Assembly: GCA_965200155.1 (NCBI GenBank)
Contig: CBDATR010000010.1
Span: forward strand, 96,001 to 160,000
DNA length: 64,000 nucleotides
Reading direction: 5' to 3'
From: Nitrosopumilaceae archaeon
GTDB lineage: Archaea > Thermoproteota > Nitrososphaeria > Nitrososphaerales > Nitrosopumilaceae
The notes under the pieces: model-generated
Seen by the model: the letters and a program-made list of their open reading frames with translations, nothing else
Databases searched by the model: none
Told to the model about the DNA's origin: nothing
Shown: positions 34,617-46,664 of the stretch, piece after piece
Layout of the letters: the number at the start of each line of letters is the position of its first letter
Position numbering within the stretch: position 1 is the first letter of the stretch
Position numbers and translations under genes: made by a program

Positions 34617-34655
34617 AATCCCAATGCGAATCAAAATAAAAATGTCTAACTTTCT

Positions 34656-34747
34656 GTATGAGTTCACGTCTTCCGGAATCTTATACACAAATCACATTAA
34701 CTGTCGCGATCAGTTATGCGTAAATTTAGACACAGGTGAACTCATAC
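34656..34747. mobile_element. MITE-A (no TSD, abuts truncated IS)
   Basis: Full TIRs; flanks differ. Confidence 0.93.
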
Positions 34748-35898: not shown

Positions 35899-36796
35899 AT
35901 GATGGATATGGATATTTACGCTGAACTCAGGGATCTGGGCTATCTGGGTGTCGGAAATAAACACGGTATAAGACGATTGTGGGATTGGTGTGATGAAGAG
36001 CAAAAACAAAACATGTTGAAGGAGATTGGCTACACGCGCATTGCAGATGAAATAGGTATGGAGAAGCTGTGGGATTGTATGAGTTCACCTGTGTCTAAAT
36101 TTACGCATAACTGATCGCGACAGTTAATGTGATTTGTGCATAAGATTCCGGAAGACGTGAACTCATACGTGTGATTGGTGCAATGGTCGGTGGTTCAAGA
36201 ACAAGCGTGACTCCATGTTGAAGGAGATTGGCTATGCCCGCATTGGAAACGAGATAGGCATGAAGCAGTTATGGGATTGGTGCAATGGTCGGTGGTTCAA
36301 AAACAAATGTAATTCCATGTTGAATACGGATGGCTACACGAGGATTGCGGATGAAATAGGCGCGGAGAAGCTGTGGGATTGGTGCAACAAGGAGCAAAAG
36401 AATATCATGATAAACGAAATAGGTTATGATCGAGCCGTGGTCGAGATAGGCACGATGTCCCTATGGGTTAATTGCGCCGAGATACATAGGGGCGCAATGG
36501 TAGATAAATTTGGATATTCGCGTATCAGCAGCAAGATAGGTATGGCTCGCTTGTGGTTCTGGTGTGATGACTCACGCCAGAGTGATATGCTGAATGAATT
36601 GGACTATGACTATGAACGCCTTGCAAAAGATATCAGTATGGAACACATGTGGGATGGCGCCCGTCGTATACACAAGTATACAGGATCACGTCGATTCTTT
36701 CTCGATGCGATGCAATTCCCTGAGGTATACATAGATCATGAATATACAGGTTTTATTGAGTGGTTCTTCGACCAACACCCTAACATGACATTATAA
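35899..36796 (+). pseudogene. Tandem-repeat protein (GYxRIxxEIGxxxLWDWC) interrupted by MITE-A
   Basis: Removing 100 bp joins the 35875 and 36215 ORFs in frame. Confidence 0.8.
36077..36168. mobile_element. MITE-A
   Basis: TSD GTGGGATT/GTGTGATT (1 mismatch). Confidence 0.93.
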
Positions 36797-36906
36797 TTAG
36801 CAAATACTCGTGGTGTAGACCACACACTATCGAGAATTAAAAGTTCTTCCCGATTCTAGCAGTCAGTTGCTGACCATGCGTGTACGATCATAATAGCATT
36901 TTGGCA

Positions 36907-36998
36907 GTATGAGTTCACCTGTGTCTAAATTTACGCACAACTGATCGCGACAGTTAATGTGATTTGTGCACAAGATTCCGGAAGACGTGAACTCATAC
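36907..36998. mobile_element. MITE-A
   Basis: TSD TTTTGGCA. Confidence 0.95.
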
Positions 36999-37314: not shown

Positions 37315-40300
37315 GTGGGAATCATTCCAGGAATAGTGGAAACTTTTGATCAAGCATTAGCAAGGCTACGTGCGGAGACCGATGATGAAAAGGATATCAG
37401 CCACAAGGGCAGTAAAGTTAGCAAGACCGAACGCGGTATCCGATTTGAGAAACTAATGCTACACTACTTCAAGAATGACAGCATATACAAGAATGAGTTC
37501 AAGGAAGTAAAACTATTCCATGACTGGTATCGTGAACCGGACATTGGAATTGATCTGGTTGCCAGAGACAAAGATGACAAGTTAGTTGGCATTCAGTGCA
37601 AGTGCTGGAATGATGATTCCAGTATCCACGAGAATCAGATTTCAAACATGTTTGTCGTAAAGGAGAGCAAAAAAATGGACAGACTCATTCTTGTATTCAC
37701 AGGGGCGCACGTAAGCAGGAATATTGTAAAACCGTTCGAAGAATCCGGTTACCCAATACTCATGAAGGCTGATCTCCGCCAGAGCAGAATTGACTGGAGT
37801 GGAATGAAGAGAGTAGTGAAACCAAAGACATTACAAGATCACCAGAAGGAAGCAGTTCAAAGAGTAGTCACCGGACTACAGGGTGCAGATCGCGGTAAGC
37901 TCATCATGGCATGTGGAACTGGCAAGACCATAACATCACTCCATATCGCAGAAACCATTCCAGGGAAAGATGGTCTTGTTCTATACTTGGTACCGTCACT
38001 ATCACTGATACCGCAGGCGATGAGAGAGTGGGCAGATAACCGTTCCATTATTCATCAGTACATGGCAGTATGCTCTGATTCATCTGCCAGTGCAGATGAG
38101 GAGGGTTCCATAACGGAGTGTCCTATACCTCCGTCCACAGATGTGGAAACGATAAAGAAGCAACTACATTCTATGGAGAAGCGGAAAGGTATGCGTGTCA
38201 TATTTTCCACGTATAATTCCGTAGAACGAATAGCACAGGCAATGAATGGTGAATTTGACCTGATTCTATTTGATGAGGCGCATCGTACCACCGGACTGGA
38301 CAGGATAAAGGAGTCATACTATCTAATGGCTCATGATAATGACAAGATTCCTGCCAAGAAGCGGCTATACATGACTGCCACCCCTCGGATATACAAGAAA
38401 GCCGCAAAGAAGCAGGGTGCAGAGAAGGATCTAAAGGTTTACTCCATGGATGATGTCAAAATATATGGTGAGGAGTTATACAGGCTGGATTTCTCCGAGG
38501 CTATACAACGGAACTTGTTATCCAGTTACGGGATAATAATGCGTGAAGTTAGCACATCCGACATATTTGGCCGGTTCATAAAGAGAGGAGAACATGATGA
38601 GAATGACTATGGGAATCTTGACTTTGATTTTACAACAAAGATGGGCGGCGTATGCAAAGCCCTGACATATCCTGATGGTGATGAGTCACCGCCACGACCA
38701 CTCCAGAGAGTGATGGTATTTCATGATAGAGTAAAAAAGTCCAAGTTGTTCGCCGGACATGACCTCGGCGAAAAAGTCAGGAAACCACTAAAGCTGGACA
38801 AGAACACCAAGAAGGCATTACAATTTGATGAACTAACGGAGCGACTCATGGAAACAGACCCAAAGCTTGACGGGTTCAAAACAAGCACAAAGCACGTGGA
38901 CGGCGGCACTAACTCACGGGATCGGGGGGAGCGGATAAACTGGTTACGAGATAGTGTAAGTGACCCCAAAGAGATTCGCATACTCAGCAACGCTAGGTGC
39001 CTCCAGGAAGGTGTGGATGTTCCCGCTCTTGATGCTGTTGCATTCATGGACCCCAAAAAGTCGCCCATCGATATCATACAGAGTATAGGAAGAGTCATGC
39101 GAAAATCAAGGGATGGTAGCAAAAAGAAAGGTTATGTGATAGTGCCCATTCCTGTTATGGAGGGCGATAACCCCAAGAATACTCTTAACAAGAACAAAAA
39201 GTATGAGCAGATAAGCCTGGTATTGAATGCCATTCTGGCACATGATAACAGATTGAGAAACATACTGAACATTCAGATGTTATCAAAAACATCCAAGAGT
39301 AAGAAACACCGACCGGCTGATGAGCAAGAGATAACACCACAGCTTCAGGAGTGGATAAAGAATACCATTGAGGTTGACAATAATGACGAATTACTCCAGG
39401 ACATAAAGACCATCCTGCTGGATATGGGTGACCCAGGATTTTATGTAGATGTTGGTGAGAAGCTAGGTGAGCAGTCCATCATAATAGAAATGATGCTAAA
39501 AGAGAGAATGAAGGTACAGCCGGATACCAAAGATATCATTCATGCTCTACATGAAGACTTACAGTCGGTGGTTGGTAAAACAATAACGATAGCAGACACT
39601 GTAAAAGCACTGGCACAACATGCTGTTATGGCGCGAGTATTTACTGCATTGTTCCCGGAACACCATAATCCTGTTGTGTCTGCATTTAATGGCGTCCTGG
39701 ACAAGATAGATGTACGAGGACAGCTTGAGAGCTTGGAGAAGTACTATGTCAAGATAAAGTATGACCTAGAACAGCTTAGTGACACGGAACAGAAACAGGA
39801 GTTCATTCGAAATATTTACGACTCTTTCTTCCGAGGGGCAGACAGAAAGGCTGCAGACAAGCACGGAATAGTATACACACCCATTGAAGTAGTGGATTTC
39901 ATTATATCATCAGTCTCACATATACTGAGAACGGAGTTTGGGAAAACATTCGATGATAGAACGGTAAAGGTGCTGGACCCGTTCACCGGTACCGGGATAT
40001 TTATCGCCCAGTTAATAGAGCGAGGAATGATCAGTGATGATGCACTACCTGACAAGTACCATAATGATATTTACGCGAATGAAATAATGCTGCCGGCATT
40101 CTATGTAGCCATGTCCAATATCGAGGCATCATATCAGAAAATGATGGGTGAATACACACCATTTGATGGGATATCATACATAGATACATTCGCACAGCAC
40201 CCCTCATACAGGCTGGATGCCGAACAGCGTAAGAAGCAGATCAAGATTACAGATGATTCCCTGGAGGAAGCCATGACTAGGGTGAAACGGCAGAATATGG

Positions 40301-40371
40301 ATTGTATGAGTTCACGTCTTCCGGAATCTTATGCACAAATCACATTAACTGTCGCGATCAGTTATGCGTAA
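37315..40371 (+). CDS. Type ISP restriction-modification enzyme, N-terminal part (Mrr-like nuclease, SF2 helicase, start of MTase)
   Basis: DIGIDLVA..IQCK, MACGTGKT, DEAH, TATP, EGVDVPALD, QSIGRVMRK, DPFTGTG; ends within MITE-A. Confidence 0.9.
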   Translation: MGIIPGIVETFDQALARLRAETDDEKDISHKGSKVSKTERGIRFEKLMLHYFKNDSIYKNEFKEVKLFHDWYREPDIGIDLVARDKDDKLVGIQCKCWNDDSSIHENQISNMFVVKESKKMDRLILVFTGAHVSRNIVKPFEESGYPILMKADLRQSRIDWSGMKRVVKPKTLQDHQKEAVQRVVTGLQGADRGKLIMACGTGKTITSLHIAETIPGKDGLVLYLVPSLSLIPQAMREWADNRSIIHQYMAVCSDSSASADEEGSITECPIPPSTDVETIKKQLHSMEKRKGMRVIFSTYNSVERIAQAMNGEFDLILFDEAHRTTGLDRIKESYYLMAHDNDKIPAKKRLYMTATPRIYKKAAKKQGAEKDLKVYSMDDVKIYGEELYRLDFSEAIQRNLLSSYGIIMREVSTSDIFGRFIKRGEHDENDYGNLDFDFTTKMGGVCKALTYPDGDESPPRPLQRVMVFHDRVKKSKLFAGHDLGEKVRKPLKLDKNTKKALQFDELTERLMETDPKLDGFKTSTKHVDGGTNSRDRGERINWLRDSVSDPKEIRILSNARCLQEGVDVPALDAVAFMDPKKSPIDIIQSIGRVMRKSRDGSKKKGYVIVPIPVMEGDNPKNTLNKNKKYEQISLVLNAILAHDNRLRNILNIQMLSKTSKSKKHRPADEQEITPQLQEWIKNTIEVDNNDELLQDIKTILLDMGDPGFYVDVGEKLGEQSIIIEMMLKERMKVQPDTKDIIHALHEDLQSVVGKTITIADTVKALAQHAVMARVFTALFPEHHNPVVSAFNGVLDKIDVRGQLESLEKYYVKIKYDLEQLSDTEQKQEFIRNIYDSFFRGADRKAADKHGIVYTPIEVVDFIISSVSHILRTEFGKTFDDRTVKVLDPFTGTGIFIAQLIERGMISDDALPDKYHNDIYANEIMLPAFYVAMSNIEASYQKMMGEYTPFDGISYIDTFAQHPSYRLDAEQRKKQIKITDDSLEEAMTRVKRQNMDCMSSRLPESYAQITLTVAISYA

Positions 40372-40395
40372 ATTTAGACACAGGTGAACTCATAC
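40304..40395. mobile_element. MITE-A splitting the Type ISP gene
   Basis: TSD TATGGATT; excision restores ..RQNMDYVNVIVGNPPY. Confidence 0.95.
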
Positions 40396-40396
40396 T

Positions 40397-41734
40397 ATGG
40401 ATTACGTCAATGTCATAGTCGGGAATCCACCATATAGTGGCGGTCAGAAAACAGAGGGTGATGATAATAAGAATGTCTCGCATACGGATCTGGAAGATAG
40501 TGTGTCAAAGACATACATCAAAAACGCGCCCAAAGGGAATGTAAATCATCTATACAACTCCTACATCAAGGCATTACGCTGGACATCTGATAGAATCGGT
40601 GATTCCGGGGTTATCGGTTTAATCACACCATCCGCATATATCACTGGGAATAGTGAAGCAGGTATACGCGCCTGTCTTGGAATGGAGTTCACCGACATAT
40701 ACTGCTTTGACTTGAGGGGCGATGTAAAAGGTAAGCAGGATTGGAGACGAGAGGGTGGTAAGATATTTGGGAGTGACTCAACTGTGGGCACCGCTATAAC
40801 CATCCTGGTGAAGAACCCCGCCAAACATCATTCTACGATTCACTATCATGACATCGGCGACTACATGAGTAGAGAGGAAAAGTTGGAAATCATAAAAGAA
40901 CATGGTTCCATTGCAGGAATGGAATGGGATATCATAGAACCGGACAAATACCATGACTGGTTGAATAAGCGTGAATCCAGTGATGAGTGGGATTCCATGA
41001 CTGGAATGGTAAATAGTGAAAGAACACATGACAAGAAAGTTGGTACATTGTTCCATACGTATTCTGGTGGCATTCTCACAGCAAGAGATGTCTGGGTGTA
41101 TAACACATCACTTCAAAAACTGAAAAACAACATGAAGATAACAATAGAACATTGTGCCAAGCAGGACTTGAAGAAAAATTTTGACAAGGATAAGAAATAT
41201 GTTGCATGGAATGAAGATCTTCAGAATAGTATACGGAAACTAGATGAACCACTAATGTTCCATGATACCAACATTAGAATGTCTCTGTATAGACCATTTT
41301 TCAAACAATATCTCTATTTTGATACGACTTTTATCACCAACACATACCGTATACCCTCATTCTATCCGCGCCCAGACTCCAAGAATGTTGCAATCTTGGT
41401 ACCTGATAAAATAAAGGGTGAATTCTCAACATTAGTCACCGATATAACACCAGACCTCCATGTAAATGAAACATCTCGCTGTTTACCCTTGCGTACAAAG
41501 AACAAAAATAATGAGAACACCCACAAGGTAAGTCCACCAGTCCACCAGTCCACCAGTCCACCAGTCCACCAGTCCACCAGTCCACCATACGAGAACCTGG
41601 CGATAATAGTACCCAACAAGATCAAGGGCGAGTTCTCAGTATTCATAACGGGAATGACGCCGGATCTACAAGTGGTGGCAAACGGCCGAGTATTTCCCAT
41701 GTTCACACAGTCACCGGAGGTGACTATTCCATGA
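40397..41734 (+). CDS. Type ISP enzyme middle part (MTase NPPY and target-recognition region with duplicated module)
   Basis: GNPPYS, YIKALRW, GGKIFG, TARDVWVYN, YRPFFKQYLY. Confidence 0.88.
   Translation: MDYVNVIVGNPPYSGGQKTEGDDNKNVSHTDLEDSVSKTYIKNAPKGNVNHLYNSYIKALRWTSDRIGDSGVIGLITPSAYITGNSEAGIRACLGMEFTDIYCFDLRGDVKGKQDWRREGGKIFGSDSTVGTAITILVKNPAKHHSTIHYHDIGDYMSREEKLEIIKEHGSIAGMEWDIIEPDKYHDWLNKRESSDEWDSMTGMVNSERTHDKKVGTLFHTYSGGILTARDVWVYNTSLQKLKNNMKITIEHCAKQDLKKNFDKDKKYVAWNEDLQNSIRKLDEPLMFHDTNIRMSLYRPFFKQYLYFDTTFITNTYRIPSFYPRPDSKNVAILVPDKIKGEFSTLVTDITPDLHVNETSRCLPLRTKNKNNENTHKVSPPVHQSTSPPVHQSTSPPYENLAIIVPNKIKGEFSVFITGMTPDLQVVANGRVFPMFTQSPEVTIP
41531..41586 (+). repeat. Simple sequence repeat (AGTCCACC)x7
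   Basis: Seven perfect 8-bp units counted directly. Confidence 0.97.
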
Positions 41735-42399
41735 AGGATAACATTACAGACTGGGCGCTCAAACAATACCAGAACCGATACCATGATGATACTATCACGA
41801 AGGAGGATATCTTCTACTATACGTATGGGATTCTACACCACCCCGGCTATCGTACCAAGTACCAGGTATTTCTCGTTCGTGGTTTACCAAGCATACCCAT
41901 GGCACCCGATTTCCACTCATTCATGAAAGCAGGTAGACAGCTAGCTGACTTGCATCTCAATTATGAGACCGGCCCCCGTTACAACCTGGGCGAGTCGCTG
42001 GTTACAATACCTGACGCTCCAAAGAAGATAGCCTTTGGTAAGAAACCCAATGACGGTCCCGGACCAAAGGGAATAGTTGATCAATCCAAACTACTACTGG
42101 ATAACGTGTTAGTATACGATAACATACCAACAATCCATTACTCAGTCAATGGTAGAACGCCTGTAGGATGGTTCGTTGATAGATACAAGTATCGTTCCAA
42201 TGCAGAGAGTGGCATCACGAATTATCCACTAGAGGGTGTGAATGGTGACATGGTACGCGCCATAATAGAGCGGTTGGTCTATGTGGGAATAGCGTCAGAC
42301 AGGATCATATACCAACTACCAGAACAGTTCGAAATGGAATCATCATTGCAACCAGAACCAACCGGCCTGGACAAGTACTACAAGGCGCCTATTCCCTAG
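41731..42399 (+). CDS. Type ISP C-terminal domain as separate ORF
   Basis: DNITDWAL, ITKEDIFYYTYGILH, G..LADLHLNYE; ATGA overlap and GGAGGTGA at 41716-41723. Confidence 0.88.
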   Translation: MKDNITDWALKQYQNRYHDDTITKEDIFYYTYGILHHPGYRTKYQVFLVRGLPSIPMAPDFHSFMKAGRQLADLHLNYETGPRYNLGESLVTIPDAPKKIAFGKKPNDGPGPKGIVDQSKLLLDNVLVYDNIPTIHYSVNGRTPVGWFVDRYKYRSNAESGITNYPLEGVNGDMVRAIIERLVYVGIASDRIIYQLPEQFEMESSLQPEPTGLDKYYKAPIP

Positions 42400-42548: not shown

Positions 42549-42851
42549 TAAGGAGTCGCGGCATTCTGGGCGCCATAAGGAGCATGGCGGATATGTGATC
42601 AATAGTAACCAGGGCGGGGGCGTCATGACATATGGATATCACCATAAGAGCAGTGGCGTATAGTCAATAGTATAAGCCCAGGGGCGTCATGACATATGGA
42701 TATCACCATAAGAGCAGTGGCGTATAGTCAATAGTATAAGCCCAGGGGCGTCATGACATATGGAGATCATAAGGAGCAGTGGCGTATGTGGAAATATGGG
42801 GGCGCCATAAGGAGCAGTCATATGATCAATAGTATAAGAAGCCCAGGGGCG
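42549..42851. repeat. 64-bp tandem repeat with degenerate flanking units
   Basis: GGGGCGTCATGACATATGGA at 42617, 42681, 42745; CATAAG(G)AGCA recurs. Confidence 0.9.
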
Positions 42852-43476: not shown

Positions 43477-43887
43477 ATGAAAATAGCCGTTGACACATGC
43501 GTTGTAATAGGCATAATGGAGGGCGCCTCGGTCGTCAGTAAACTGCGAGACAAGCTTAAGGGCAAGCAATACAAGATAGTGCTGTGTCGCCAAGTATTAT
43601 GGGAGCTCAGACGGGTACATAACCTGACAGTTGATGCAATTCTTGGTAACCTGCGCAAGATATTTGGTGAGAGACGCGTCGGCATAATATCGGATCCCAC
43701 AGATCTTGAGGATACCGCCCAAATGCTACGTAACCAGTATCACTATGCACATAATGGTGATCACCGCATTCTAGCCACGTGCCGCATACATGGAATTGGC
43801 CTGATTACGCTTGATCGGGGAATGCTTAAGGTGGCCACCATGGTGGGAATTCCGGCATTTCACCCTAAATATGCAGGTGGGATATAG
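43477..43887 (+). CDS. PIN-domain (VapC-like) protein
   Basis: IAVDTCVVI, LWEL, DHRILA, LITLD. Confidence 0.8.
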   Translation: MKIAVDTCVVIGIMEGASVVSKLRDKLKGKQYKIVLCRQVLWELRRVHNLTVDAILGNLRKIFGERRVGIISDPTDLEDTAQMLRNQYHYAHNGDHRILATCRIHGIGLITLDRGMLKVATMVGIPAFHPKYAGGI

Positions 43888-44168: not shown

Positions 44169-45459
44169 TCATGTCATGAGGTATTTTAGAATATGATTCT
44201 GTATACTATTCCAGTCCCAGAGTACCACGTTAATGTTTGACTGTCTAGCTATCTCCGCTGCCTGGTTGGTGAACCCGCCGGGGCATATTATAATGACAAC
44301 GTTCCCGCCGGATGTGGTCGCAGCACCTAGTGTCTTGTTAACATCCGGCCCGCCACATTGACTCCTCCAGTGTTTGTATTGGATGATTGCCCGCGTTTTT
44401 GTGCCGTTGTCATAGTGTTGTTCAGCTATTATATCAATGCCCTTGTCGGCGCGTGTGTCCCCCAGCATCTTGCCTATTCTCGCATCATATCCCTTTATGA
44501 TAATCCAACCCATCGCCGCCAATATATTAGAACAGACGGCCTCAAAGGCGAACCCGTCGAAGCGGCGCAACCCGGAAACCAAATCATGATTGGTGACTCT
44601 CAAATCAACACCATCTAATATACCACGATTATAGAGATTCACTCGTGTCCCGGGTCTGGCATCAGTTTTCTGTGGTGGTGGCAGTAATTCCTCCAGTTTA
44701 CCATACTTGAGCTTGGTGTCACACGTGATTTCAATGGATAACTTCCCTAGTGCGGAATTATACCATGTTATTGTAGAACCGCGACTCATGAATTTGGTTT
44801 TAGCGTATGCGCCCTCCATGGCAAGGACCACCCTACCATTATTATCAACCAGGTATGGTATATCCGATATCACTAAACGGCGATTCTCGTTCAAGACTAG
44901 TGTCTTGCCTTCCGGAATTGGAGTGGTACGGTTAACAGGGCCACCACCCTCCAGGGTTACACGATATTGGCCTGTCTTGTCTTTTATGGAAATGGTCTTG
45001 CCTGCAACACCGTGCCGCATTACTAGAATATCATAGGAGCCCTTGCGGAATGCCGCCCACGAGAAGGGCGGGCTTATCATGCATGGCGTCACGATGCCTT
45101 GGTCCTGCAAATTATACATCCACGCGGGCACACGAGAAGGGCGGGCTTATCATGCATGGCGTCACGCCTAGAAGTTTGTCACCATAGCATATCGCGCATT
45201 CATCAGTCCCATAAACGTACCAGACGGGCTTGGATTTTTGATAATTGATAGCCCTCTCCCACGCTTTTGTATCCACGCCTCTCAGTCTGATGGTCTTACC
45301 GTGGTGTTTTATAGTTAATCCCAACATACCATTCTTGCACTGGGCTTGGTCGAATGGTATGTCATAGACCGTATGACTATTCTTGTCCATGATGTGAATA
45401 CATGCACTAATATCAATAAGGTGATCTCCTATCCTGCCGGTCGTCACATCATCATTCAC
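44169..45459 (-). pseudogene. Mrr-like restriction endonuclease domain protein, frameshifted by 73-bp insertion
   Basis: C-terminal FEAVC..DKGIDIIA..IIQYKHW; removing 73 bp fuses both ORFs into 405 aa. Confidence 0.8.
45058..45166. repeat. Perfect 36-bp duplication flanking 37-bp insert
   Basis: 45058-45093 = 45131-45166. Confidence 0.95.
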
Positions 45460-45738: not shown

Positions 45739-46664
45739 AGTTTGTTGCATAACTGACTTTGACAGAATACAGGTTCCCCATGTCGTAATCTACGTTGCTG
45801 CCGCGTCCACCAACTAGTTGTACTCGTATGTTATCCCATCTCCTCACCATTAATCCGTGTCCGAATAATCGTTTGGACGGGAACCGGCTCTATGATTATC
45901 TCGATTATCCATCGCCTGTTGTATCCTTTTACCGCCTTCCAGTACTGCTTGTTTTCGGTCTTTTCCTCATCAGAAAGGCAGAAAATGGGCGATTCCGGGC
46001 TTCCTCCAAGACTGCGAGTCCCCATGAGTCGTATGAGTTCACGTCTTCCGGAATCTTGTGCACAAATCACATTAACTGTCGCGATCAGTTGTGCGTAAAT
46101 TTAGACACAGGCGAACTCATACAATGCATATGCACTCCCAGTCCTCGAGCACAGGAATCCGCGCCTCTTTTTACATTTGGCCCTAATCCACTCACCACGA
46201 TTCAAGGCCGGTCGAGTACACAATCATTGGCCCTCGTCAGCTTTTTGTCTGTGCCGATAATCATACCATTCCTCTTCTATGTCAAGATCTTTTCCGCGTC
46301 TGTATGTTGTGGAGTAGCGGGGTTTGGTGTCCTTCCAGTAGTCCTGCAAGGAATCCGGATACCTGCCTGTATCTCATACCTAATGTCGTTCTCAGTGACA
46401 TGTAACATGTCCACGGCATACTGGTAGGGAGCACCCTCCTTGTTATGGTTAGCCTTTTCAATTCTACGCATGATTAAAGCCAAATAGCCTTCCGCTGGAC
46501 GTACTTGGCATTGTCGGTGAATACCATCAAGTTTGTTTAAAAAATTCTCAGTTATTAATGCTTGGATCTAATGGGCACCAACATACGGTTGTGTGGTGGA
46601 AATACACAAATTTTTCCCACAATACGATTTCCATATATAACTTGATTAAGTTATGCAACAAATT
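45739..46664 (-). mobile_element. IS903-like copy with internal deletion at MITE-A
   Basis: Both TIRs present; reverse complement of 384-1552 lacking the middle. Confidence 0.82.
46031..46122. mobile_element. MITE-A (no TSD, adjacent deletion)
   Basis: Full TIRs. Confidence 0.93.

Follow-up and report, generated by a model that had tools for sequence, protein, structure and literature searches.

Repeat tracts between duplicated recognition cassettes in Type ISP restriction-modification genes of Nitrosopumilaceae archaea: a proposed three-state frame switch

The Type ISP locus and its cassette junction

We analyzed a stretch of 64,000 nucleotides (nt), hereafter the window, from a Nitrosopumilaceae archaeon (assembly GCA_965200155.1, 2.38 Mb; contig CBDATR010000010.1), in which three co-directed open reading frames (ORFs) lie over a Type ISP restriction-modification locus (Table 1; positions are those of the window unless another locus is named). 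An earlier reading of the letters, made without database searches (the sequence-only reading), had placed the locus in an archaeon, and the archaeal model for small-subunit ribosomal RNA indeed outscored the bacterial one (1437.6 versus 1093 bits). The stretch is contained in seven sequencing runs of two studies (sponge metagenome; "organism A"). ORF 1 matched the Pfam families Mrr_cat_2 (2.6e-21, residues 53–165), ResIII (2.7e-25), Helicase_C (3.1e-11), and ISP_coupler (1.2e-08); ORF 2 matched Eco57I (5.3e-06) and Type_ISP_C (PF18135; 1.6e-35, profile positions 2–159); and ORF 3, hereafter the C-terminal ORF, matched Type_ISP_C at profile positions 167–327 (4.6e-40). From NPPY onward, ORF 2 aligned to LlaGI (5FFJ; 2.2e-68) and LlaBIII (4XQK; 1.8e-57), and the C-terminal ORF aligned to the C-termini of the same two enzymes. 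The motifs of a gamma-class N6-adenine methyltransferase are divided between ORF 1 (DPFTGTG) and ORF 2 (GNPPYS). Because these Pfam domains and alignments are spread over ORFs 1 to 3, the gene is, by homology, a Type ISP restriction-modification gene split in three pieces: it has the Mrr-type nuclease, the superfamily 2 (SF2) ATPase with coupler, the gamma-class methyltransferase with NPPY, and the Type_ISP_C target recognition domain (TRD) of that type.

The break between ORFs 1 and 2 is due to a miniature inverted-repeat transposable element (MITE), which had gone unremarked in the sequence-only reading and which is bordered by the 8-bp direct repeat TATGGATT (40296–40303 and 40396–40403). 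Its insertion lengthens the gene by 100 bp and disrupts the frame directly ahead of NPPY, between methyltransferase motifs I and IV. The last 23 codons and the stop of ORF 1 fall within the element (the ORF 1 tail matches MITE copies), and the uninterrupted paralogue C24a reads RVKRQNMDYVNVIVGNPPYS across the same site. BLAST of the MITE stretch against the genome returned 643 matches, 529 of them at least 85 nt long and many 100% identical; 16 copies lie in the window (e.g., 36077–36168, 34655–34747, 36906–36998, and 46031–46122, besides the one at 40304–40395). The element thus has what characterizes a MITE, i.e., short noncoding DNA, terminal inverted repeats, a target-site duplication, and many copies. 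Because many of the 529 copies are 100% identical, the family has been active recently; the insertion in the window gene is itself recent. A candidate empty-site allele, namely, a joint skipping 40296–40397, appeared in four of four runs with only 23 letters on one side, and at least one record carrying it showed 13 mismatches over 128 nt; the joint probably derives from a paralogue lacking the MITE and was not counted.

The junction of interest lies in the 3' part of ORF 2, where two homologous modules, 36 aa each and 56% identical, flank a perfect tract of seven copies of AGTCCACC (Tandem Repeats Finder: 41531–41587, period 8, 7.1 copies, 100% matches). Both modules, which we also call cassettes 1 and 2, match the module profile described below. 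Three-frame translation gave one outcome for each frame that the tract can set. With 7 units, as in the window copy, ORF 2 reads both modules and ends at the TGA of an ATGA overlap (41731–41734) with the C-terminal ORF (state A). With 8 (or 5) units, translation meets the double stop TAATAG, whose first letter is at 41604 (state B). With 6 (or 9) units, translation enters the frame of the C-terminal ORF, which is closed just before 41515 by TAA TGA (41509–41514) and is free of stops from 41515 onward into the ORF starting at 41731; module-2 DNA is open in this frame as well and reads as a Ser/Gly/Thr/Asn-rich linker (state C). The duplicated modules, the outcome for each unit number, and an upstream site belonging to the C-terminal ORF itself, which we found as GGAGGTGA, had all been described in the sequence-only reading and hold as described. 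A single polypeptide with all activities, as in Type ISP enzymes, is absent from the window, where three ORFs take its place; state-C relatives have one ORF (1445 aa in L004), and state A has two.

The modules map onto the DNA-contact region of LlaGI, a comparison that the sequence-only reading had proposed. In LlaGI numbering (chain index + 164; checked on N1018, Y1021, H1368, G1372, and Q1373), a module corresponds to residues 1341–1379, comprising a beta-hairpin (1347–1358) and Loop VI (1365–1374). According to PMC4872093, the hairpin packs on Loop VI and contacts the DNA backbone, Loop VI is one of three base-reading loops of the TRD, and residues H1368, G1372, and Q1373 of LlaGI read G:C at position +3, where N1360 of LlaBIII reads A:T; the "guide" subdomain of the TRD is described there as reading no bases (PMC4872093). 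Since the C-terminal ORF carries the guide, a change of specificity would come about via the cassettes rather than via that ORF. In an alignment of 44 modules, the loop columns are the unconserved ones, with H, Q, E, or N at the H1368 position, and the cassettes of one locus differ in the Loop VI stretch at 19 of 20 loci (the exception being L050, with E in both). The tract is therefore placed between alternative recognition modules, as in NgoAV.

Table 1. Features of the Type ISP locus in the window and repeat tracts at related loci
Feature	Position	Strand	Description
ORF 1	37315–40371	+	Mrr-type nuclease, SF2 ATPase, coupler, first methyltransferase half (DPFTGTG)
MITE	40304–40395		92 bp, 12-bp perfect terminal inverted repeats
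ORF 2	40397–41734	+	Second methyltransferase half (NPPY), TRD core with module 1, linker, peptide of the repeat tract, module 2
Module 1 (cassette 1)	41384–41491	+	36 aa; His at the LlaGI H1368 position
Linker from module 1 to tract	41492–41530	+	RTKNKNNENTHKV
C-terminal-ORF frame upstream of its ATG	41515–41730	+	Open; would be used if 6 or 9 units
Repeat tract (frame selector)	41531–41586	+	(AGTCCACC)7; no stop in three sense frames; S/P/V/H/Q/T-rich peptide
Module 2 (cassette 2)	41594–41701	+	36 aa; dual-coded; Gln at the LlaGI H1368 position
"Off"-frame double stop	41604–41609	+	TAATAG, 10 nt into module 2
Putative termination-reinitiation site	41716–41734	+	GGAGGTGA (41716–41723) and ATGA stop/start overlap (41731–41734)
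C-terminal ORF (ORF 3)	41731–42399	+	222 aa; last TRD-core helices and "guide" subdomain
Tract, C24a			(ACTCACC)9
Tract, C24c, C34, C22a, and C9a			(AGCCAGTC)5
Tract, C42			(AGCCAGTC)6
Tract, C43a			(AACCAGTC)6
Tract, C43b			(GA)10
C24b			No tract
Tract, L002 (G005), same genus as window			(AGACTCC)10
Tract, L003 (G004), same genus as window			(AGACTCC)17
Tract, L004 (G003), same genus as window			(ATCCGCA)9
Tract, L012 (G005), same genus as window			(GA)26
Tract, L006 (G008), same genus as window			(GA)5
L013 (G004), same genus as window			No tract
Tract, L032 (Nitrosopumilus genome), same genus as window	1405–2372 of L032		(AACCCACTCAG)88; perfect 11-nt array, 968 bp, open in three frames
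Tract, L049, other genus			(CA)6
Tract, L050, other genus			G11
Tracts, L051, other genus			(GA)5 and G7; three modules

Conservation of the layout in paralogues, genomes, and public proteins

The window gene belongs to a family that is expanded in Nitrosopumilaceae archaea. By tblastn, the 2.38-Mb assembly holds at least 11 Type ISP paralogues and two C-terminal fragments. Ten of the 11 show the same layout, i.e., module 1, linker, tract, module 2, frame change, and C-terminal ORF, and the eleventh (C22b) has a single hybrid module at the canonical 9-residue spacing and looks recombinant. In a census of perfect simple sequence repeats (SSRs) over the whole assembly (unit of 2–12 nt, at least 4 copies, at least 20 nt), 21 SSRs were found, nine of them at Type ISP module junctions; these nine are all the SSRs of the large contigs and include all eight with 7- to 8-nt units. 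The small contigs C6, C4, C2, C33, C18, and C26 carry long simple repeats, namely, (GT)102, (TAT)28, (TTAT)17, and (CA)21, and may be host or other non-archaeal DNA in the bin. As to the two fragments, C24d (L017; contig C24, 238909–237936) carries (AGTCCACC)2 and an incomplete module 1, and its module 2 runs in frame into the C-terminal domain; C24e (L014; contig C24, 458570–457905) consists of the C-terminal domain only. Both may be recombination donors or debris.

With the C-terminal ORF as query, 9 of 41 relatives matched, and sampling of the family gave matches in 21 of 301 genomes, belonging to 7 of 27 genera. The layout of module 1, tract, module 2, ATGA overlap, and C-terminal ORF, for which a homologue search had been proposed, was found at a total of 20 loci in nine genomes and three genera, and 18 of these loci carry a tract. 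Besides the window's genome, the genomes with the layout are G003, G004, G005, G008, G041, G063, G086, and the Nitrosopumilus metagenome-assembled genome (MAG) of L032; three loci (L049, L050, and L051) come from two genera other than that of the window. All 11 tract units have a length that is not divisible by 3 and are free of stops in the three sense frames, as would suit the perfect coding tracts of SSR contingency (phase-variable) loci. A different arrangement occurs at L016 (G004), where (ACCCA)31 (1115–1269 of that locus) lies ahead of two modules in different frames; the first of these is stop-free whichever frame is read, and the second closes at an ATG..TGA overlap. Canonical Type ISP forms in the same family have one module in one ORF of 1444–1679 aa, with about 9 residues from FP(L/F)Y to (K/Q)(D/E)NIT, and their modules pair with cassette 1 in the alignment. 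A search of public contigs for related loci returned two loci only, from Nitrosopumilaceae and Nitrosopumilus MAGs.

Public proteins carry the same parts. The C-terminal ORF has 588 relatives of 122–389 aa (E ≤ 1e-10), of which we examined 37; 35 of these were stand-alone C-terminal ORFs, and P0064 and P0075 were single-module canonical fragments. One of the sequences examined came from a Cenarchaeum MAG. Most of the 35 (27) begin with M-x-(D/E/G)-N-(I/V)-T, mostly M-x-DNIT, and the other eight begin upstream, i.e., by 2 residues (P0091), by 7–10 residues (P0021, P0084, P0105, and P0115), or far upstream in the alternative frame (P0066, P0067, and P0122). A 36-position profile of the 44 modules, run against 1.84 billion representative proteins (E ≤ 0.001), matched 348 proteins. 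The 11 best matches have two modules each and end 3–13 residues past the second, three of them with lengths of 1430, 1375, and 1287 aa; judged by their sequences, these two-module proteins ending after module 2 are state-A products. Two module stretches were present in 21 of the best 150 matches, 18 of which were inspected, and three further matches with 7–11 stretches resemble low-complexity noise. In P0147 (1004 aa), two stretches are followed by the C-terminal domain. Four distant two-module proteins (P0137, P0138, P0152, and P0156) have another module subtype (…GNKGFS…DAQCFPL…), and one of them, P0138, contains the pentapeptide ATQRN repeated five times as well as a stretch resembling an out-of-frame module; with these four, the layout may reach beyond Nitrosopumilaceae.

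Frame use, selection, and tract variation

Purifying selection acts on module 2 as read in its own frame. Among 17 sequences (15 distinct; 108 nt, gap-free), its variable sites are distributed 35/18/64 over the three codon positions, and the ratio of nonsynonymous to synonymous rates (dN/dS) is 0.17 in its own frame (dS ~1) versus 2.6 in the other frame. Upon synonymous resampling, the chance of an open +2 frame was P ~0.06–0.32 per sequence (median ~0.10), and the frame is actually open in 14 of the 17. The exceptions are C24c and C22a, whose module 2 shares the frame of the C-terminal ORF, and C43b, where that ORF's frame is +1 and is open (P 0.005). When counted over loci, 19 of 20 downstream modules have the frame toward the C-terminal ORF open, as opposed to 2 of 22 copies of module 1 and 0 of 13 modules of canonical forms (2 of 35 controls together; Fisher p 1.4e-11, which overstates independence, as the loci are related). 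The alternate frame, whose closure in homologues would have spoken against a switch, is thus kept open, and both frames of cassette 2 are under selection.

The remaining frame and the end of the module-2 frame are conserved as well. At 16 of 18 alpha junctions (20 loci), the third frame meets a stop 10 nt inside the downstream module, as TAATAG in 12, and the module-2 frame closes in the ATGA overlap with a conserved Met at 14 of 18 loci, after a tail of 4–10 codons. A GGTGA/GGAGG-like motif is found upstream of the overlap, and the overlap is also present at three loci of other genera. ATGA overlaps of archaeal genes mediate termination-reinitiation coupling (PMC6728339 and PMC10666635). We also considered programmed ribosomal frameshifting at the junction of module 2 with the C-terminal ORF and rejected it, since there is no slippery heptamer and the conserved ATGA with its Met fits a restart better. 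All three frames appear to be used on purpose, via dual coding and coupled restart.

Repeat number is not invariant among near-identical genes. The paralogues C34 and C42 share 99.45% identity across 3666 nt; besides 12 mismatches, they differ by a single gap, which equals one repeat unit, and the 5 units of C34 lead to the stop, and the 6 units of C42 lead to a fused open frame of 802 aa. Similarly, the public protein P0125 and L004 share 91% identity as far as the tract, after which P0125 follows the module-2 frame and L004 the fused frame. The unit AGACTCC is present 10 times in L002 and 17 times in L003, two species with flanks that are 78.7% identical, and AGTCCACC is present 7 times in the window versus twice in fragment C24d. 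Over the 20 loci, state A occurs 4 times, state B 7 times, and state C 9 times, counts that overstate independence because the loci are related. Intact N-terminal ORFs (1364–1493 aa) are found in C24a (state A, 1493 aa) and in C24c, C34, C22a, and C9a (state B). In the reads, the k-mer contigs of four runs end at 41547/41555 and resume at 41596/41638, leaving the tract unspanned. A metagenome scan with the left flank and first repeat unit gave 0 matches, and of the 16 matches to an 18-nt segment of module 2 in a second scan, none codes for a module.

The surroundings of the gene are chromosomal, with CDC48, adenine deaminase, thermosome, and SdhA among the neighboring genes. Adjoining the Type ISP gene are a PIN-domain ORF (43477–43887, +) and a separate Mrr_cat endonuclease ORF (44169–45131, −), which together form a small defense cluster. 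A 64-bp tandem repeat (42617–42787; 2.7 copies, 95% matches) lies directly downstream of the gene, and a 102-bp tandem repeat (36173–36387; 2.1 copies) lies upstream, overlapping an ORF (36215–36796) that has no Pfam match. The segment 43389–43896 is 97.6% identical to the DNA directly upstream of fragment C24d (contig C24) and is a shared flanking repeat. A repeat of ~1.7 kb, probably an insertion sequence (IS) element (C42, 2315–3988, and elsewhere), occurs in dozens of copies with 88–98% identity, and shorter repeats of ~0.5 and ~0.75 kb border several Type ISP loci.

A proposed three-state switch, its alternatives, and its meaning

We consider it probable that this is a gene family with two TRD cassettes in which tract copy number sets the downstream frame, giving three states. 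Slippage would alter the tract within populations, and the resulting repeat number would set one of the three. In state A, both cassettes would be translated up to the ATGA, where the ribosome would restart on the C-terminal ORF, yielding a two-piece enzyme whose pieces presumably assemble. In state B, the TAATAG stop 10 nt into cassette 2 would leave the enzyme off or truncated. In state C, cassette-2 DNA would be read, together with the tract peptide, as a flexible surface linker, and cassette 1 would be fused to the C-terminal domain. Because cassette 2 is under purifying selection and is translated only in state A (or the beta variant), it would have to act in that state; on the simplest reading, it would take the Loop VI slot in place of cassette 1 and thereby change the base read at +3, such that states A and C would read different bases. 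That the tract in this way picks which of two or three Loop VI cassettes is built in, giving each gene several specificities and an off state, is a possibility that we put forward tentatively. It would be made possible by a downstream cassette that codes for a folded module in one frame and for a harmless linker in another, and by the ATGA restart, through which the C-terminal domain would be rescued. The sequence-only reading had suggested a dual-coded, slippage-controlled switch of specificity or architecture in an archaeon; the dual-coded architecture is borne out by the conserved layout, the open frames, and the selection, near-identical genes differ in copy number, and a change of specificity would follow only if cassette 2 acts as proposed. 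None of the three refuting outcomes named in that reading (a fixed repeat number, no open alternate frame in homologues, and modules away from DNA) was observed.

Several observations weigh against the three-state switch. The window's own copy, split by the MITE, is probably not active; because the MITE separates methyltransferase motifs I and IV, this copy is likely inactive whatever the repeat does. Four paralogues (C24b, C43a, C43b, and C22b) are broken or partial, and some copies are decaying, given the abundance of IS elements and MITEs in the host genome. All five loci with short tracts (at most 12 nt) and one of the two tractless loci are in state C (L006, L013, and L049–L051), the tractless C24b, in state A, being the sole exception among such loci; state C as the only active form would also fit this pattern. 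Lastly, an AlphaFold2 model of the fused state-C form of C42 (722 aa, 14-sequence alignment) was poor, with a mean predicted local distance difference test score of 57.5; the inserted linker (blocks 22–28) had the lowest confidence and no secondary structure, and the cassette could not be mapped.

The state-C bias leads directly to a simpler account, namely, a plain on/off switch in which only the in-frame fusion (state C or the beta variant) is active, state A is a second off state, and cassette 2 is left over from an earlier duplication, its similarity being maintained by gene conversion among paralogues. On/off switching by SSRs is the common case in restriction-modification genes (PMC7383803), 9 of the 20 loci are in state C, and six copies have C-terminal ORFs that are 94–100% identical beside N-terminal parts of ~72% identity, which shows conversion or recombination among paralogues. 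Yet a relic would not show a dN/dS of 0.17 at dS ~1 across genomes and genera, nor would one expect its frame to end exactly at the ATGA with a conserved Met at 14 of 18 loci. The intact 1493-aa state-A ORF of C24a and the full-length public state-A proteins also speak against a second off state, as does L051 with its three cassettes and two tracts; we regard plain on/off switching as unlikely.

Recombination among the paralogues could itself be the main process, with cassettes exchanged between genes and silent fragments, the conserved cassette 2 and C-terminal DNA serving as a homology handle, and the repeats arising as a by-product. The mosaic identity among paralogues fits such exchange, as do the occurrence of the same Loop VI types at position 1 in one locus and position 2 in another, the C-terminal-only fragments C24d and C24e beside or away from full genes, and the recombinant look of C22b with its single hybrid module. 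What exchange leaves unexplained is that the units are never divisible by 3 (11 of 11), that the alternative frame is open, that third-frame stops follow immediately, and that the ATGA overlap is there. As the main process it seems to us decidedly improbable, and it can coexist with the three-state switch. More sweepingly, the whole family might be decaying pseudogenes in a symbiont ridden with IS elements and MITEs, the repeats, breaks, and duplications being neutral damage. The MITE-broken window copy, the four broken or partial paralogues, and the 529 MITE copies in the genome are what such decay would produce. Neutral damage, however, would hardly keep the junction architecture in three genera, retain intact N-terminal ORFs of 1364–1493 aa, maintain purifying selection and stop avoidance, or leave the main contigs without SSRs elsewhere, and we hold this explanation to be very improbable indeed. 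We thus return to the three-state switch as the preferred reading.

In host-adapted bacteria, phase variation of restriction-modification genes by SSRs is well established; the known modes are on/off switching or, in Type I hsdS, a full versus a truncated specificity subunit. In on/off genes of the Type III mod and Type IIG kinds, slippage in a coding tract shifts the frame in a binary manner; unlike in the archaeal family, those tracts are not set between duplicated recognition elements. Literature searches (supplements excluded) found no published case of a repeat-driven switch, either among Type ISP enzymes or within Nitrosopumilaceae. The closest relatives in enzyme architecture are LlaGI and LlaBIII (PDB 5FFJ and 4XQK), which share the domain order Mrr, SF2 ATPase, coupler, methyltransferase, and TRD and which, as described in PMC4872093, are single chains with one Loop VI element, ~9 residues to the next helix, and no repeat. 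The archaeal family differs from them by its two to three cassettes, its hypermutable tract, its dual-coded stretch, and its stop/start overlap.

The closest relatives in switching are the Type I hsdS genes with SSRs, i.e., poly-G in NgoAV, GCAA[n], and AG[n], in which, as in the archaeal family, the tract lies between recognition modules and the frame sets the protein form; NgoAV goes beyond on/off in having two forms with different specificities (PMC7383803). The hsdS tracts act on whole TRDs of a separate S subunit whose truncated form dimerizes, and the systems are bacterial, whereas the archaeal tract acts on a 36-residue sub-element of the TRD in a single-chain enzyme, with module-2 DNA open in two frames and a proposed coupled restart that would rescue the C-terminal domain. 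"Extended" three-TRD HsdS proteins (Mannheimia haemolytica and Fusobacterium nucleatum) resemble the archaeal genes in that a repeat decides on an extra module, which is suggested to compete with the preceding one for the same role (PMC7383803); by analogy, cassettes 1 and 2 would compete likewise in state A. These are Type I S subunits, described in PMC7383803 without dual coding and without a third productive frame. Archaeal ATGA gene pairs, for their part, have the same 4-nt overlap and upstream Shine-Dalgarno-like motif and often encode subunits of one complex (PMC6728339 and PMC10666635), whereas the Type ISP overlap sits within what relatives have as a single gene and would be used only in one of three repeat-set frames.

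If the three-state switch holds, Type ISP enzymes would have their first described switch of this kind, and it would be a clear archaeal contingency locus, in ammonia-oxidizing sponge symbionts. What would also be new about it is (i) that it acts on a 36-residue sub-element of the TRD with one base-reading loop, not on a whole domain; (ii) that three frames are apparently used, through dual coding and coupled restart; and (iii) that the family is expanded, with 11 paralogues in 2.4 Mb, 10 of which have the layout, and accounts for nearly all SSRs of the genome. Should the change of specificity be real, the cassettes would offer a natural map of Loop VI sequence versus base read, which would aid the re-engineering of restriction specificity, and uncultured symbionts would have a testable route by which to diversify phage defense and methylation. 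Given about 10 genes of this kind in each genome, a clonal population of symbionts would then possess a large, reversible repertoire of specificities and methylation patterns, and it appears that repeat copy number would let these sponge-symbiont archaea vary their anti-virus defense reversibly.

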